A stretch of DNA of 7,111 bases from IMG/VR virus record IMGVR_UViG_2585427777_000007, one strand, 5' to 3'. Below the pieces are notes generated by a model that had not been told where the DNA came from, did no database searches, and worked only from the letters and a program-made list of their open reading frames with translations. Origin of the DNA: a virus (Duplodnaviria > Heunggongvirae > Uroviricota > Caudoviricetes). Positions 2,525-7,111 of the stretch are shown piece after piece. The position numbers were made by a program, and so were the translations under genes. Every line of letters begins with the position of its first letter. Position 1 is the first letter of the stretch.

Positions 2525-3421
2525 ATGCCTGCTGTTGACCTTTCCCAGTTACCGGAACCCGCCATCATCGCGAAGCCTGATTTTGAGGCAATTCTGGCTG
2601 ACACAAAGGCCATGATGATTGCGTCCTATCCTGCCGAACAGCGTGAAGCCGTCTCCGCCGCGCTGGAGCTGGAATCGGAACCCCTGAACGTTATCGCTCA
2701 AACCATGTCTTTTCGTGAAATGCTGTTACGCCAGCGGGTCAATGAGGGGGCACGCGCCTGCATGTTAAGCCACAGCGCCGGGACAGACCTGGACAACCTC
2801 GCGGGCAATATGAACACAAAGCGCCTGACCATCACTCCGGCAACAGATACCACCGACGCAGTGATGGAAAGTGACACCTCGCTGAGACTGCGGGCGCAGC
2901 GGGCGTACGATGGCCTGAGTGTTGCTGGCCCGTCAGGTGCATACGAGTATTTTGCCCGCAGCGCCAGCGGTCTGGTGCGTGATGCGCGGGCTATCAGTCC
3001 GTCTCCGGCAAATGTGACGGTTTCCATCCTGTCCACTGAAGGCGACGGCACAGCAACGGAGGCGTTGCTTAATACCGTTCGCGCCGTTCTGAATGCAGAG
3101 GATACCCGCCCGGTGGCCGACCGCCTTACTGTACAGAGCGCCAGAATCGTGACATGGCGGCTGAATGCAAAACTGTACTTTTACCCCGGCCCGGAATCCG
3201 AACCTATTCTGGCGGCGGCTGAATCGTCGTTCAGGAAGTGGCTGGCTGAGCAGGGGCTTATCGGTCAGGACGTGGCGTTGTCCGCCATTGCTGCCGCACT
3301 GCATGTGCACGGTGTGCAACGCGTGGAGATAATCGAACCCACACAGAATATGGCCATCAGCGACATACAGGCGGCGCGCTGTGAGTCATTCACCATCAGC
3401 GAAGGTGGACGCAATGAGTAA
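2525..3421 (+). CDS. J: baseplate assembly protein J (wedge)
   Basis: ATG at 2525 with GAGGGAG 7 bp upstream. 298 aa. Conserved segments (MPAVDLSQLPEP..., ...MESDTSLRLRAQRAYDGLSVAGPSGAY..., ...RPVADRLTVQSA..., ...HVHGVQRVEI...) match the gpJ family. Confidence 0.85.
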   Translation: MPAVDLSQLPEPAIIAKPDFEAILADTKAMMIASYPAEQREAVSAALELESEPLNVIAQTMSFREMLLRQRVNEGARACMLSHSAGTDLDNLAGNMNTKRLTITPATDTTDAVMESDTSLRLRAQRAYDGLSVAGPSGAYEYFARSASGLVRDARAISPSPANVTVSILSTEGDGTATEALLNTVRAVLNAEDTRPVADRLTVQSARIVTWRLNAKLYFYPGPESEPILAAAESSFRKWLAEQGLIGQDVALSAIAAALHVHGVQRVEIIEPTQNMAISDIQAARCESFTISEGGRNE

Positions 3422-4022
3422 TTCGTTGTTACCACCATCAGCCAGCAATTTCATGCGTTGTGCCGAAGCCGTCGGAACACGCATTACAGACATTCCGGTA
3501 GACCTCAACACGTTGTGGTCGCCGGACACCTGCCCGGTGCATCTGCTGCCTTATCTCGCCTGGGCGTTTTCCGTTGACCGCTGGGATCGCAACTGGCCGG
3601 AAGAGACAAAGCGACAGGTAATTCGTGATGCATGGCTGATACACCGACACAAAGGGACCATCAGCGCACTGCGAAGAGCCGTGGAGCCTCTCGGCTACCT
3701 GATTGAAGTAAAGGAGTGGTGGCAACTCAATGAGGAGCCTGGGACATTTCGCATTGTTGTCGGAGTACTTGATCAGGGCATCACCGATGAAATGTATCAG
3801 GAACTTGAGCGCCTTATTGCGGATGCAAAACCAGTAAGTCGCCATCTGACGGGGCTGGCGATCAGCCTGAGTGTGAACGGAAAGATTTTCGTTGGTACGG
3901 GATGCTATTACGGCGACGCCCTGACGGTTTATCCCTACACCCCGGAGTCCATTATTGTCGAAGGGGATTATTTCCCTGCCCCGGCCATTCATTTAATTGA
4001 TAATCTGAGAGTAAACGCATGA
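3414..4022 (+). CDS. I: tail/baseplate protein I
   Basis: The ORF track frame starts at GTG 3381, but the ATG at 3414 overlaps the J stop (ATGAGTAA) and gives an MSNSLLPP... N-terminus like P2 gpI. Conserved ...WSPDTCPVHLLPYLAWAFSVDRWD... and ...ERLIADAKPVSRHL... segments. Stop TGA 4020-4022 overlaps the H start. Confidence 0.8.
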   Translation: MSNSLLPPSASNFMRCAEAVGTRITDIPVDLNTLWSPDTCPVHLLPYLAWAFSVDRWDRNWPEETKRQVIRDAWLIHRHKGTISALRRAVEPLGYLIEVKEWWQLNEEPGTFRIVVGVLDQGITDEMYQELERLIADAKPVSRHLTGLAISLSVNGKIFVGTGCYYGDALTVYPYTPESIIVEGDYFPAPAIHLIDNLRVNA

Positions 4023-5833
4023 CAGTGAAATACTACGCCATTCTGACTAATCAGGGCGCGGCACGACTGGCTAACGCGACGATGCTCGGCAGTAAGCTGA
4101 ATCTGACGCGAATGGCCGTTGGTGATGCAAATGGTGTGTTACCAACACCAGACCCTGCACAAACAAAACTGATTAACCAGAAACGCATTGCACCGCTGAA
4201 TCTTCTGAGTGTTGACCCTAACAATCAGAGCCAGATTATTGCGGAGCAAATCATCCCTGAAAGCGAGGGAGGATTCTGGATCCGTGAGATTGGTCTTTAT
4301 GATGATAAAGGTGTACTCATTGCGGTGGCAAACTGCCCGGAAACGTACAAACCGCAGTTGCAGGAAGGCAGTGGACGCACCCAGACTATCCGCATGATTC
4401 TGGTTGTCACGAACACCGAAGCCATCACGCTGAAAATCGACCCGTCTGTGGTTCTGGCAACCCGCAAATATGTGGATGATAAAATATCAGAGCACGAGCA
4501 GTCACGACGTCACCCGGACGCCTCGCTGACCGCAAAAGGCTTTGTTCAACTTAGCAGCGCCACCAACAGCACCTCTGAAACGCTGGCCGCAACACCGAAA
4601 GCGGTTAAGGCTGCATATGACCTGGCTAACGGGAAATATACCGCTCAGGATGCGACTACGGCACGAAAAGGCCTTGTTCAACTCAGTAGCGCCACCAACA
4701 GCACCTCTGAAACGCTGGCCGCCACACCGAAAGCGGTTAAGGCTGCATATGACCTGGCTAACGGGAAATATACCGCTCAGGATGCGACTACGGCACGAAA
4801 AGGCCTTGTTCAACTCAGTAGCGCCACCAACAGCACCTCTGAAACGCTGGCCGCCACACCGAAAGCGGTTAAGGCTGCATATGACCTGGCTAACGGGAAA
4901 TATACCGCTCAGGATGCGACTACGGCACGAAAAGGCCTTGTTCAACTCAGTAGCGCCACCAACAGCACCTCTGAAACGCTGGCCGCCACACCGAAAGCGG
5001 TTAAGGCTGCATATGACCTGGCTAACGGGAAATATACCGCTCAGGATGCGACTACGGCACGAAAAGGCCTTGTTCAACTCAGTAGCGCCACCAACAGCAC
5101 CTCTGAAACGCTGGCCGCCACACCGAAAGCGGTCAAGGCTGCATACGATCTGGCAAACGGAAAACAACCGGCAGATGCCACGCTCACTGCTCTGGCAGGA
5201 CTTGCCACTGCAGCAGATCGGTTGCCTTATTTTACCGGAGCAGACCGCGCAGCGCTGGCAACCCTTACAGCTATTGGTCGCGCTATTATCGCTAAGGGCA
5301 GTATAAAAGATGTCCTCAATTACCTTGGTTTAGGAGAAGGCTCGGCGCTACCCGTTGGTGTGCCTGTTCCGTGGCCCACCGCCACACCGCCAGCAGGCTG
5401 GTTAAAGTGCGACGGGCGCGCCTTTACAAAAGAACAATATCCTGTTCTGGCCAGAGCCTACCCGACCCTCCGTCTTCCTGATTTACGCGGTGAGTTTATC
5501 CGTGGATGGGACGACGGGCGCAAAGTTGATACGAGGCGTTCATTGCTAAGTGGTCAGGCTGCAACATTTATTCGTACAGCTTTGCAGGATTATTACGGTT
5601 ACGATCTGAATACTAATGTCAAAGTAGGTATCGCTTTTGCTACTGCTGATTCTGTTATAACCGTTGGAAACCCAGCTAATCCTAAAGCAGGAAATAATAG
5701 CGATTATGTTCCTGCATCAGCAGATAACTCCATAATGGGTACTCAAAGGACAGCGGAGGATAATTTTACCGGGGCATGGATATCAATGCGCCCCCGCAAT
5801 GTTGCGTTTAATTACATCGTAAGGGCCGCATAA
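4019..5833 (+). CDS. H: tail fibre protein H (P2-like N-terminal anchor, tandem fibre repeats, tail-collar-like domain, variable receptor-binding tip)
   Basis: ATG at 4019 overlaps the I stop (ATGA). 604 aa. N-terminal ~160 aa (...MAVGDANGVLPTPD...GGFWIREIGLYDDKGVLIAVAN...EHEQSRRHPDASLTAKGF) match the P2 gpH constant region. Then five copies of ...VQLSSATNSTSETLAATPKAVKAAYDLANGK..., the phage tail fibre repeat. The C-terminal ...PAGWLKCDGRAFTKEQYPVLARAYP...LPDLRGEFIRGWDDGR resembles a tail-collar domain, followed by a divergent tip ending RPRNVAFNYIVRAA. Confidence 0.9.
   Translation: MTVKYYAILTNQGAARLANATMLGSKLNLTRMAVGDANGVLPTPDPAQTKLINQKRIAPLNLLSVDPNNQSQIIAEQIIPESEGGFWIREIGLYDDKGVLIAVANCPETYKPQLQEGSGRTQTIRMILVVTNTEAITLKIDPSVVLATRKYVDDKISEHEQSRRHPDASLTAKGFVQLSSATNSTSETLAATPKAVKAAYDLANGKYTAQDATTARKGLVQLSSATNSTSETLAATPKAVKAAYDLANGKYTAQDATTARKGLVQLSSATNSTSETLAATPKAVKAAYDLANGKYTAQDATTARKGLVQLSSATNSTSETLAATPKAVKAAYDLANGKYTAQDATTARKGLVQLSSATNSTSETLAATPKAVKAAYDLANGKQPADATLTALAGLATAADRLPYFTGADRAALATLTAIGRAIIAKGSIKDVLNYLGLGEGSALPVGVPVPWPTATPPAGWLKCDGRAFTKEQYPVLARAYPTLRLPDLRGEFIRGWDDGRKVDTRRSLLSGQAATFIRTALQDYYGYDLNTNVKVGIAFATADSVITVGNPANPKAGNNSDYVPASADNSIMGTQRTAEDNFTGAWISMRPRNVAFNYIVRAA
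4535..5164 (+). repeat. tandem array of 132-bp (44-codon) repeats inside H: 4 full copies plus 1 truncated/diverged copy
   Basis: Unit starts at 4535, 4667, 4799, 4931 and 5063. Copies 2-4 (4667-5062) appear identical base for base by eye. Copy 1 differs at about 4 positions. Copy 5 diverges after about 85 bp and runs into unique sequence. Confidence 0.9.
5313..5338. other. candidate site-specific invertase crossover site (hix/gix/cix-like) at the H constant/variable junction
   Basis: TCCTCAATTACC TT GGTTTAGGAGAA is a 26-bp imperfect palindrome around an ACC-TT-GGT core. It resembles, from memory, the AAACC-NN-GGTTT core of Din-family sites, and it sits exactly where cassette homology begins. 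Not verified against a consensus. Confidence 0.3.
5327..5525 (+). repeat. direct repeat copy 1 (about 200 bp, roughly 90% nt identity to 5841-6040): conserved 5' part of the tail-fibre C-terminal cassette
   Basis: Aligns to 5841-6040 with scattered mismatches, from ggtttaggagaaggctcggcgct... through ...ggatgggacgacgggcgcaa. Encodes GEGSALPVGVPVPWPTATPPAGWL...LPDLRGEFIRGWDDGRK in both copies. Confidence 0.85.
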
Positions 5834-5852
5834 AAACGTTGGTTTGGGGGAA
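5827..5852. other. candidate site-specific invertase crossover site, second copy, immediately after the H stop codon
   Basis: CGCATAAAAACG TT GGTTTGGGGGAA has an AAAAAC-G-TT-GGTTT core at the start of the second cassette, in the same orientation as the 5313-5338 site. Not verified against a consensus. Confidence 0.3.
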
Positions 5853-6040
5853 GGCTCGGCGCTGCCCGTTGGTGTACCTGTTCCGTGGCCCACTGCCACA
5901 CCGCCAGCAGGCTGGTTACAGTGCAACGGAGCTACGTTCACCAAAGAACAATATCCTGTTCTGGCCAGAGTCTACCCGACCCTCCGTCTTCCCGATTTGC
6001 GCGGTGAGTTTATCCGTGGATGGGACGACGGGCGCAAGAT
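5841..6040 (+). repeat. direct repeat copy 2 (partner of 5327-5525)
   Basis: Same alignment as above. The offset between copies is 514 bp, so recombination between them would fuse the second cassette to H in frame. Confidence 0.85.
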
Positions 6041-6317
6041 TGACGAGGGGCGTAAGTTGCTTTCATGGCAGAAAGGTACACTGGTCGGCGGTCATGACGA
6101 TAACGATTCTTCGCTTGATATCTCGTACATGAGTAACGGAAATAATATTGACTATGGCGGCGATAAGGTGTTTGCGGGGAATTACCGTAGCGATTATTTG
6201 TGGTACGTAATTCTGGGTGGAACAAACAGTCGCGCAAAAGCCGAATTAAACGGAGCATTCTTTAACATAACCCGCCCCCGCAATATCGCGTTTAACTATA
6301 TCGTGAGGGCGGCGTGA
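5844..6317 (+). CDS. silent alternative tail-fibre C-terminal cassette (tail-collar-like domain plus different variable tip); no ATG or RBS
   Basis: Frame is open from 5823 to TGA 6315-6317; the ORF track's start at 5844 is a TTG with no Shine-Dalgarno. The first ~65 aa are about 90% identical to H residues ~441-505, the middle is unrelated, and the last 14 aa (RPRNIAFNYIVRAA) are again conserved. It is in a different frame from H, so it cannot be made by read-through. Confidence 0.7.
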   Translation: MGEGSALPVGVPVPWPTATPPAGWLQCNGATFTKEQYPVLARVYPTLRLPDLRGEFIRGWDDGRKIDEGRKLLSWQKGTLVGGHDDNDSSLDISYMSNGNNIDYGGDKVFAGNYRSDYLWYVILGGTNSRAKAELNGAFFNITRPRNIAFNYIVRAA

Positions 6318-6323
6318 TACCGT

Positions 6324-6938
6324 TCAACTGGCAAGTGCCAGTGGCGCTTCCGGCCAGCTGATTTCAGGTGCCGTGCTGATATCCAGTGCGTTCAGCTCGT
6401 CGATATAATCCAGCACGGCGTTCAGTTTTGCCGTTTCTTCTGGTGTCAGACTGCGACCAGCACGCAGTTTGAGGTTGATAAGATCGACTGACGCCATCGC
6501 CTGTTTCACCCGTTGCTGGCGTTGCTGTCTGGCAACCTCCAGTTCTGCGGCTCGCTGCCGTTCAGTATCGGTTACCCACGCCTCACCGTTCCAGGTATCC
6601 CATGGCGTGGCTGGCTGTTTTGTGGTGGTGTCCGCCGGGTAATCACCCGGTTGGGTAATCAGAACAGGGTTACCGTTCTCCGTGCTGTATACCGTCTCGC
6701 CGCGGTGATCAGGCACATGCTCCCACCCGTTCAGCGTGGCAGTCCGGCAAACCACGTAACCCGAAATTGCCTCCGGCGGTGCATCGGCGCACGAATGTGC
6801 CGGAGTACCCACCCCAAGGGCGAGATACTCCACAGAGGATGAGGTGTATTCCCGGGTTTCCTCGTCATAGTGATATACAGTGATATCGCCCGCTACAGTG
6901 GCGATACCGTTTTCATCCAGAACTGCAGTGTTACTCAT
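6324..6938 (-). CDS. tail fibre assembly protein (Tfa chaperone, lambda Tfa / P2 gpG family)
   Basis: 204 aa. ATG is the complement of 6936-6938, with GAGGG 7 nt upstream on the - strand. C-terminal ...YIDELNALDISTAPEISWPEAPL and central ...W.HV.DHRGETVY.....NGEAWVTDTE... parallel lambda Tfa (...RVDTSTAPDIEWPAVP; ...DHRGKTVY...WNGTAWVKDTE) as recalled. Convergent with the silent cassette, with only 6 bp between the two stop codons. Confidence 0.85.
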   Translation of the reverse strand: MSNTAVLDENGIATVAGDITVYHYDEETREYTSSSVEYLALGVGTPAHSCADAPPEAISGYVVCRTATLNGWEHVPDHRGETVYSTENGNPVLITQPGDYPADTTTKQPATPWDTWNGEAWVTDTERQRAAELEVARQQRQQRVKQAMASVDLINLKLRAGRSLTPEETAKLNAVLDYIDELNALDISTAPEISWPEAPLALAS

Positions 6939-7111
6939 TAAACTGCCCTCACAATGTAATTAAGTGCAATGCTACGGGGTCTGACAGTGATACCCTTCGC
7001 ATACCCGCTTCTGATAGAGGTCAGAATAGTAGCCTGCATACCATTGTCTGACATTGCCATGACAGGATTGCTGAATGTTGTCCCGTCCGGCATTTTAAAG
7101 CTGCCCTCACG
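6938..7111 (-). CDS. 3' end of a third tail-fibre C-terminal cassette (- strand), 5'-partial at window edge; stop overlaps the Tfa start (TAATG)
   Basis: The - strand frame is open from the window edge to TAA (complement of 6938-6940) and ends ...GITVRPRSIALNYIVRAV, homologous to the last 14 aa of H and of the silent cassette. There is an internal ATG at the complement of 7091-7093. It lies directly upstream of, and is coupled to, the - strand Tfa. Confidence 0.5.
   Translation of the reverse strand, partial: REGSFKMPDGTTFSNPVMAMSDNGMQATILTSIRSGYAKGITVRPRSIALNYIVRAV

Follow-up and report, generated by a model that had tools for sequence, protein, structure and literature searches.

The 7,111-nt stretch of viral DNA analysed here (the window) carries, with a probability of about 0.9, the leftmost two-thirds of a multiple-inversion switch of the Min type that exchanges the C-terminal receptor-binding tip of the tail fibre of a P2-like E. 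coli prophage. Under the mechanism that we propose, three 26-bp crossover sites would take part: site 1 in the tail-fibre gene H (+ strand), site 2 over the stop codon of tip 1 (+ strand) and site 3, inverted and outside the window, next to the invertase gene. A Gin/Pin-like serine invertase would recombine site 3 with either site 1 or site 2 and, after a flip of the array, site 1 with site 2. With Hc denoting the constant part of H and T1 to T3 the alternative tips, four isomers would arise, namely I (Hc-T1 T2> <tfa <T3, the state of the window), II (Hc-T3 tfa> <T2 <T1), III (Hc-T2> <tfa <T3 <T1) and IV (Hc-T1 T3> tfa> <T2). The analysis establishes what the sites are, that the geometry keeps the fusions in frame, that isomers I–III and an array resembling isomer IV exist in nature, and that breakpoints lie at the sites. 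That sites 1 and 2 point the same way is normal for arrays of this kind and is no sign of switching by deletion.

Crossover sites in the window

A sequence-only reading had called two hix/gix-like 26-mers in direct orientation at positions 5313–5338 and 5827–5852, and both are indeed present, with the central TT on the + strand in each case. Site 1 (site a; 5313–5338, + strand, TCCTCAATTACC TT GGTTTAGGAGAA, central TT at 5325–5326) lies within H at the junction of its constant and variable parts. Site 2 (site c; 5827–5852, + strand, CGCATAAAAACG TT GGTTTGGGGGAA, central TT at 5839–5840) contains the H stop codon, TAA, at 5831–5833. The core that the two sites had been said to share, ACC-TT-GGTTT-GG-GAAGG, is slightly off, as the TT is preceded by ACC in site 1 and by ACG in site 2. 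Both sites have the format of the Din family, with 26 bp made up of imperfectly symmetric 12-bp half-sites around a 2-bp core; the core dinucleotide in this family is AA/TT, or GA for gix. For comparison with the published site table, the minus-strand readings were used (TTCTCCTAAACC AA GGTAATTGAGGA for site 1 and TTCCCCCAAACC AA CGTTTTTATGCG for site 2).

A weight matrix was derived from 16 published hix/gix/cix/pix/mix/bix sites (Table 3 of PMC3241671). Among all 26-mers of the window on both strands, site 2 (32.7 bits) and site 1 (29.7 bits) rank first and second; the next unrelated position scores 2.2 bits, and the maximum over 200 dinucleotide-type shuffles is 21.9 bits. When the p15B mix sites are removed from the matrix, site 1 scores 26.8 bits, which is inside the published range, whereas site 2 scores 17.1 bits against a shuffle maximum of 18.6 and is not significant alone. 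The hix/gix-like call thus stands above background for both sites when all published sites are used, but only for site 1 when the mix sites are withheld. Since site 2 scores so low without the mix sites and yet has only one mismatch to mixN''O' (and two each to mixMr''N', mixO''P' and mixP''Q'), it is recognisable specifically as a Min-type site and not as a generic hix/gix site. A search with a generic palindromic consensus returned site 1 as its sole match (three mismatches, with 0 such matches expected by chance) and missed site 2, for which the published mix sites were needed. A strict AAACCNNGGTTT search of the loci gave no match, because the outer halves are degenerate. Both 26-bp sites are real crossover sites of a Din-family DNA invertase.

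Cassettes and reading frame

In the window, genes V, W, J, I and H form a P2-like tail module, which is chromosomal in all close relatives; the locus module is also present on a 92.5-kb phage-like plasmid. The H open reading frame spans 4019–5833 on the + strand, and its constant part, Hc (4019–5326), ends at the central dinucleotide of site 1; depending on the genome, this one Hc continues into tip 1, 2 or 3. The tip 1 cassette (5327–5833, + strand), which is the one expressed in the window state, consists of a conserved block (5327–5547), a unique part (5548–5826) and the stop codon, and matches the Pfam family Collar (PF07484, E 2.3e-16). Tip 2 (5841–6317, same strand as H) is silent in the window, does not need a start codon of its own and also matches Collar (E 1.4e-15). 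It is followed on the minus strand by tfa (6324–6938), which codes for a tail-fibre assembly chaperone (Caudo_TAP, PF02413, E 3.5e-28) and is annotated in relatives as tail fiber assembly protein WP_000072166.1. Co-oriented with tfa is the 3' part of the silent, inverted tip 3 cassette (6938–7111, minus strand), an open reading frame ending in ...LNYIVRAV, the 5' part of which lies past the end of the window.

A direct repeat (5322–5547 and 5836–6061, 88% identity, spacing 514) begins at both sites, as had been proposed. The claimed offset of 514 bp is also correct, and 514 mod 3 = 1 is the frame difference between H and the silent cassette, such that joining 4019–5326 to 5841–6317 gives the predicted in-frame H-tip 2 fusion, an open frame of 1785 nt. 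Because the inner half-sites encode the starts of the tips (GLGEG...), exchange at the 2-bp core always yields an in-frame H-tip fusion. This would explain mechanistically how a single prophage with only one tail-fibre gene can present any of three receptor-binding tips, and the three tips are expected to give different host ranges. This is relevant to host-range prediction and also to annotation, in which silent cassettes are now labelled pseudogenes or 'partial' genes.

Third site and invertase in relatives

In relatives, the tip 3 cassette runs on to an inverted site (9381–9406 in locus L001, 10442–10467 in locus L003) and then to a recombinase gene. Placed from these relatives, site 3 lies ~400 bp beyond the 3' end of the window in inverted orientation, and the Gin-like invertase gene beside it is found 70–100 bp past the inverted site in every relative examined. 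The gene product, 190 or 199 aa long, has Resolvase and HTH_7 domains and matches Mu Gin over its full length (3uj3/4m6f, E about 1e-91). Of the two explanations offered earlier for the direct sites, that inverted partners exist or that switching occurs by deletion, the former is therefore borne out. To the two direct sites of the window the relatives add one inverted site, strain MS8345 has four sites, and IMG/VR contigs contain 5–8 such sites in series, spaced 439–514 bp apart. The same cassettes and invertase were found on three different phage backbones. The recombinational enhancer on which Fis acts is ~65 bp long, contains two Fis sites and lies in the 5' part of the invertase gene, near one site (PMC3798978), and the invertase of this prophage would be expected to depend on Fis and an enhancer. 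Such an enhancer would be situated beyond the window, in a gene whose conservation as coding sequence would confound its recognition from sequence.

Rearrangements among E. coli genomes

A count of junctions covered 5,426 complete E. coli genomes. Hc leads into tip 1 in 53 of them, into tip 2 in 72 and into tip 3 in 235; after the outer half of site 2, at the end of tip 1, 86 genomes have tip 2 and 54 have tip 3. E. coli MS10860 (99.6–100% identity to the window) represents state III; its H gene corresponds to window positions 4019–5326 plus 5841–6317 with 3 nt mismatches, and tip 1 is kept in inverted orientation. Tip 1 is likewise retained inverted beside an H-tip 2 fusion in C9 and 10034292-3, and such a fusion accompanied by an inverted tip 1 is what two inversions produce. 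All of isomers I, II and III thus occur in nature, as does the IV-like array of MS8345.

C7, inverted in silico exactly at a site 2-type and a site 1-type core, becomes C9 with 0 mismatches over 10,460 nt; the corresponding operation at sites 1 and 3 turns p11A into p11B, again with 0 mismatches (10,475 nt). When the p11 breakpoints are shifted 30 nt inward, mismatches appear. In C7/C9 the crossover can be placed no more finely than between the core and +78 nt; it lies within ~25 nt of the core in p11A/p11B and within ~40 nt in L015/L013. The C7/C9 and p11A/p11B pairs provide comparative support for strand exchange at the sites, to which published PCR and sequencing data on a homologous locus in EPEC can be added. 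Assemblies of actively inverting regions may contain consensus artefacts and, across such loci, represent snapshots of a mixed population. U14A/U13A was rejected as a clean inversion pair, as inversion leaves 8 clustered mismatches and the exchange is not cleanly reciprocal; gene conversion or an artefact of polishing may account for these mismatches. Because site 3 and the invertase gene lie outside the window, and no complete genome in the E. coli collection agrees with the window in sequence and state together, we infer from the relatives that the invertase of this prophage is active.

Relation to known systems

The switch type and its architecture are already known from plasmid p15B and from a closely related EPEC prophage. 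Goldberg et al. (2014) described a three-repeat, four-variant invertible tail-fibre locus in a P2-like prophage of EPEC E2348/69 (NC_011601.1, 1891695–1893703; PMC4272514), where paired-end sequencing and PCR revealed four coexisting variants with three alternative C-termini, all four inversion isomers being present together within single-colony cultures (PMC4272514). That paper describes 215-bp inverted repeats and does not tie the breakpoints to 26-bp Din/mix sites (PMC4272514). The EPEC prophage is 96.7% identical to the window at the nucleotide level over V-W-J-I and the start of H, and its invertase is 99% identical to that of MS10860, the closest relative of the window. The site core ACCTTGGTTTGGGGGAAGG is common to both, as is the layout, which consists of a site in H (+), a site at the tip-1 stop (+), tip 2, tfa (-), tip 3 (-), an inverted site and the invertase gene. 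They differ in the tip alleles (45–55% aa identity), in the chaperone (59% identical) and in the length of the first cassette unit, which is 439 bp in EPEC and 514 bp in the window.

The Min multiple-inversion system of plasmid p15B was reportedly described by Sandmeier et al. in 1990 and 1992; the site sequences used here are those tabulated in PMC3241671. Like the present locus, it combines a Din-family serine invertase with more than two 26-bp sites in both orientations, and its cassettes are alternative tail-fibre C-termini. In p15B the sites span the stop codon of the cassette before them, with an outer half CGTTTTTATGC/T; correspondingly, site 2 overlaps the TAA and has a CGTTTTTATGCC-like outer half, and site 1 resembles mixQ''R' (GGTAAT...). 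The p15B system differs in having six sites, compared with three in the window system and four in MS8345, and the window belongs to a chromosomal P2-like prophage and not to p15B or a P1-type plasmid prophage.

The Mu G/Gin, P1 C/Cin, e14 P/Pin and Salmonella H/Hin segments have a homologous invertase and 26-bp sites with a 2-bp core, and tail-fibre C-termini are also swapped in frame in Mu, P1 and e14. These segments, however, have two inverted sites, two states and a chaperone for each tip, whereas the window system has only one chaperone gene and owes its third tip and two additional states to an extra direct site. In the R64 shufflon, several sites in both orientations likewise shuffle C-terminal cassettes of one gene, but Rci is a tyrosine recombinase acting on sfx sites; membership of the shufflons was rejected, since the recombinase of the window system is a serine invertase.

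Alternative explanations and cassette loss

RecA-type homologous recombination between the conserved blocks that follow the sites, with no role for the 26-bp sites themselves, is a highly improbable source of the isomers. In its favour, the blocks (206–221 bp) are 88–99% identical, a mosaic patch comprising the first ~45 nt past the core has been swapped among tips, and the difference between U14A and U13A is non-reciprocal. However, the outer flanks are non-homologous, which confines new junctions to a short shared sequence at the block edge, and the p11A/p11B and L015/L013 crossovers fall at the extreme edge of the 220-nt block. Moreover, the sites match published, functionally defined mix sites, a Gin-like invertase gene always adjoins, and the EPEC variants reach tens of percent per single-colony culture, which we would place far above expectation for RecA-mediated inversion between 215-bp repeats of 92% identity. 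That site 2 is an unused ancestral relic, with sites 1 and 3 alone forming a two-state, G-segment-like switch, is barely credible. Its outer half does depart from the generic hix/gix consensus, as reflected in a score not above shuffles once the mix sites are removed, but the mismatch-free C7/C9 inversion uses a site of this type, the genomes counted above include junctions of the same outer half with both tips 2 and 3, and the 'small' inversion in EPEC, which proceeds via the equivalent site, amounts to 49 +/- 37% (PMC4272514).

Switching by deletion, in which recombination between direct sites 1 and 2 would excise the 514-bp tip-1 cassette and leave an irreversible H-tip 2 fusion, is very unlikely. 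The fusion arithmetic is correct, and two-cassette loci that lack tip 1 (Hc-T2> <tfa <T3) are found in strains 510016, Iso00225 and A20. Once exactly the 514 bp between two direct cores are taken out of 10034292-3, it matches Iso00225, which occupies the same integration site, with 1 mismatch over 6,349 nt; the endpoints lie within about -30 to +10 nt of the core. Low-rate deletions by Gin were reportedly observed by Plasterk in 1983, as cited in PMC11850598. Deletion cannot, however, yield the H-tip 2 fusions with an inverted tip 1 in MS10860, C9 and 10034292-3, where that tip is kept, and the EPEC isomers coexist. In addition, the Fis/enhancer invertasome aligns sites for inversion, a restriction lost only in Fis-independent mutants (PMC3798978), and viral contigs retain arrays with as many as 8 direct sites. 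The same exact 514-bp difference also results when sister chromosomes, one in state IV and the other in state II, undergo homologous exchange. The 514-bp indel was therefore rejected as proof of site-specific deletion, because isomer exchange leads to the same product and also predicts the four-cassette array of MS8345, in which two 100% identical tip-1 units represent the reciprocal product of a IV/II exchange. The tip-1 cassette, as a precise 514-bp unit, has been lost or gained in nature, which may have happened by either route.

In addition to acting in overlapping inversions, the invertase sites may double as a cassette-exchange platform, with integron-like precise excision or gain of single ~0.5-kb tips at the 26-bp sites. 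Although we consider this unlikely, it would account for the exact 514-bp indel between otherwise near-identical prophages, for arrays of 2, 3, 4 and up to 8 cassettes, and for the sharing of cassettes and invertase among three phage backbones.

Two direct Din-family crossover sites flank the expressed tail-fibre tip

Tail and baseplate genes of a P2-like prophage make up the window: V at 1593–2174, W at 2171–2521, J at 2525–3421, I ending at 4022 and the tail-fibre gene H at 4019–5833. A 5′-truncated homologue of the H tip (tip 2, 5841–6317) follows H on the same strand. Two further features are encoded on the minus strand: a tail-fibre assembly chaperone gene (tfa, 6938–6324; Caudo_TAP in Pfam) and the 3′ end only of a third tip (7111–6938). 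The Pfam Collar domain is present in all three tips. An in-frame tandem repeat occupies the H shaft at 4534–5164 (4.8 copies of 132 bp, or 44 aa, 98% matching), and the range of H lengths among relatives, 1566 to 2004 nt, suggests variation in its copy number and hence in fibre length.

A reading of the sequence alone had placed two direct, hix/gix-like 26-bp sites on either side of the expressed tip. Using a weight matrix built from 16 published hix, gix, cix, pix, mix and bix sites (PMC3241671, Table 3), these two rank first and second among all 26-mers of the window on both strands, scoring 32.7 (site 2) and 29.7 bits (site 1), as compared with 2.2 bits for the next unrelated position and 21.9 bits for the best of 200 shuffled windows. 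Site 1 (5313–5338) reads TCCTCAATTACC TT GGTTTAGGAGAA, and site 2 (5827–5852), within which the H stop codon lies (5831–5833), reads CGCATAAAAACG TT GGTTTGGGGGAA. Since the central TT is on the plus strand at both, the sites are direct repeats, as proposed. Read on the minus strand, site 1 (TTCTCCTAAACC AA GGTAATTGAGGA) resembles mixQ''R' and cixR, and site 2 (TTCCCCCAAACC AA CGTTTTTATGCG) differs from the p15B Min site mixN''O' at one position and from three other mix sites at two. When the mix sites were left out of the matrix, site 1 was still significant at 26.8 bits but site 2 was not (17.1 bits versus a shuffle maximum of 18.6), indicating that site 2, whose outer half is degenerate, belongs specifically to the Min type.

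Homology between the cassettes starts 3–4 nt ahead of the core, the central 2 bp of the site (5322–5547 and 5836–6061, 88% identity, spacing 514). This offset does match the frame difference between H and the silent cassette (514 mod 3 = 1), and joining 4019–5326 to 5841–6317 gives an open gene of 1785 nt.

Relatives carry a third, inverted site and an invertase gene

Approximately 150 complete E. coli genomes have at least 80% of the 5000–7111 region. In every relative inspected, tip 3 continues into a third site, which is inverted and reads GAGAGATAAACG or AAAACGAAAACG followed by TT GGTTT[A/G]GG[A/G]GAA; 70–100 bp beyond it lies a gene for a recombinase of 190 or 199 aa. The product has Resolvase and HTH_7 domains and over its full length matches the Mu Gin invertase of solved structure (E about 1e-91). 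Site 3 and the invertase gene are outside the window and are known here from these relatives.

A second P2-like backbone, present at several chromosomal positions (loci L001, L010 and L012 versus L003), carries one and the same invertase (WP_000904922.1) and chaperone (WP_000072166.1). Both are also encoded by a 92.5-kb non-mobilizable phage-like plasmid, so the switch behaves as a transferable module. The invertase of the window's own backbone differs from WP_000904922.1 (86% identical, 199 aa).

Inversion isomers are found among relatives

With two sites in direct and a third in inverted orientation, four isomers are possible. With Hc as the constant part of H, T1–T3 as the tip cassettes and arrowheads for orientation, these are state I, the arrangement of the window (Hc-T1 T2> <tfa <T3); state II (Hc-T3 tfa> <T2 <T1); state III (Hc-T2> <tfa <T3 <T1); and state IV (Hc-T1 T3> tfa> <T2). 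State I thus has H-tip1 expressed and tfa antisense.

Strain MS10860, at 99.6–100% identity to the window, is in state III, and its annotated H equals the predicted H-tip2 fusion except for 3 nt, all in the tandem repeats and 132 nt apart. Water isolates C7 (state II) and C9 (state III) came from one sampling site and have the prophage at one locus; in-silico inversion of C7 at the cores of its site 2-type and site 1-type sequences gives C9 with no mismatch in 10 460 nt. Likewise, p11A (state I) becomes p11B (state II), and vice versa, when the segment between the cores of sites 1 and 3 is inverted, with no mismatch in 10 475 nt. Shifting the p11 breakpoints 30 nt inward creates mismatches, which places the crossover no more than about 25 nt from the core; as there is no homology outside the sites, each new junction has to form at the extreme edge of the shared block. 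When split junction queries were run against 5426 complete genomes, Hc was joined to T1 in 53, to T2 in 72 and to T3 in 235, and the end of tip 1 was followed by T2 in 86 and by T3 in 54. From these comparisons and published work on a homologue, the sites appear to be in use as crossover points.

The draft genome of Escherichia sp. MOD1-EC7003 (L016–L018) is broken into contigs of 1.0–1.7 kb that both start and end at these sites, as expected where a culture holds several inversion isomers.

Strain U14A differs from U13A by an inversion and eight clustered mismatches. Two versions occur of the first ∼45 nt past the core (window 5327–5371; loci L003, L004, L005 and L009), GGTTTAGGAGAAGGCTCGGCGCTACCC and GGTTTGGGGGAAGGCTCTGCATTGCC, and the tip to which each is attached varies between genomes. 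Comparison of the window's tip-1 unit with that of MS8345 and MS10860 shows 10 differences, all between +6 and +45, followed by 469 identical nt; the eight U14A/U13A mismatches sit in this same patch. Gene conversion could account for these differences, as could a short-read polishing artefact of mixed-orientation cultures.

Switching is very probably by inversion rather than deletion

Direct sites had been taken to imply either inverted partners or switching by deletion. Site 3 provides the inverted partner. Deletion between the direct sites is a very improbable switch: in MS10860 the H-tip2 fusion coexists with tip 1, retained in inverted orientation next to the invertase gene, which implies two inversions and not a deletion. 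Moreover, in the Fis/enhancer invertasome the sites are brought into alignment for inversion, a restriction lost only in Fis-independent mutants (PMC3798978). The sequence-only reading thus holds for the sites, their orientation and the in-frame fusion; of its interpretation, the inverted partner is supported and the deletion switch is not.

Nevertheless, two-cassette loci without tip 1 occur in strains 510016, Iso00225 and A20. If exactly the 514 bp separating two direct site cores is removed from strain 10034292-3, the Iso00225 sequence results, with one mismatch in 6349 nt; the endpoints fall within about −30 to +10 nt of the core, and the prophages of the two strains share one irp2-adjacent location. 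This difference is compatible with occasional site-specific deletion, without proving one, and deletion may be a rare side reaction. However, an identical tip-1-less product would result if sister chromosomes, one in state IV and the other in state II, underwent homologous exchange. The reciprocal product of that exchange would be an array of four cassettes in which tip 1 is present twice, as in MS8345 (L009 4607–7275), whose four-site array is Hc-T1> T3> tfa> <T2 <T1′, the two 514-bp tip-1 units being inverted and 100% identical. The MS8345 array arose either as this reciprocal product, with two inversion isomers as partners in the exchange, or through chimeric assembly.

A known kind of switch with different tip alleles

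We conclude that the element is a tail-fibre switch of the Min kind known from p15B, working by multiple inversion on three tips. It is an allelic version of an already known system, demonstrated experimentally in the homologous P2-like prophage of EPEC E2348/69, where three homologous repeats, a large (1891695–1893703) and a small (1892127–1893703) inversion and three alternative C-termini were described, and four PCR-validated variants coexist in single-colony cultures (Goldberg et al. 2014, PMC4272514). Both systems combine a pair of direct sites with a single inverted one; the EPEC backbone is 96.7% identical to the window over V-W-J-I-H and its invertase is 99% identical to that of MS10860, whereas the tip alleles differ (45–55% aa identity).

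Runs of direct sites are the normal anatomy of such arrays, as seen in IMG/VR contigs with 5–8 Min-type sites in series at spacings of 439–514 bp, some identical to published mix sites. Three of these contigs (L022, L028 and L034) have 7–8 sites in a single orientation at the same spacing, including sites identical to mixMI''L' and mixMr''N'; they probably represent Min regions like that of p15B, with numerous tip cassettes.

Mu and P1 have a separate chaperone for every tip. The switch in the window, in contrast, has a single tfa (6324–6938, minus strand) for three alternative tips, co-oriented with tip 3 only.

In RefSeq, silent tip cassettes of relatives are called pseudogenes ('incomplete; partial in the middle of a contig; missing N-terminus'; L001 7777–8256, L006 5132–5611 and L009 5132–5650), and that of U14A is labelled 'frameshifted'. 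Silent cassettes so labelled are functional cassettes awaiting joining to H.
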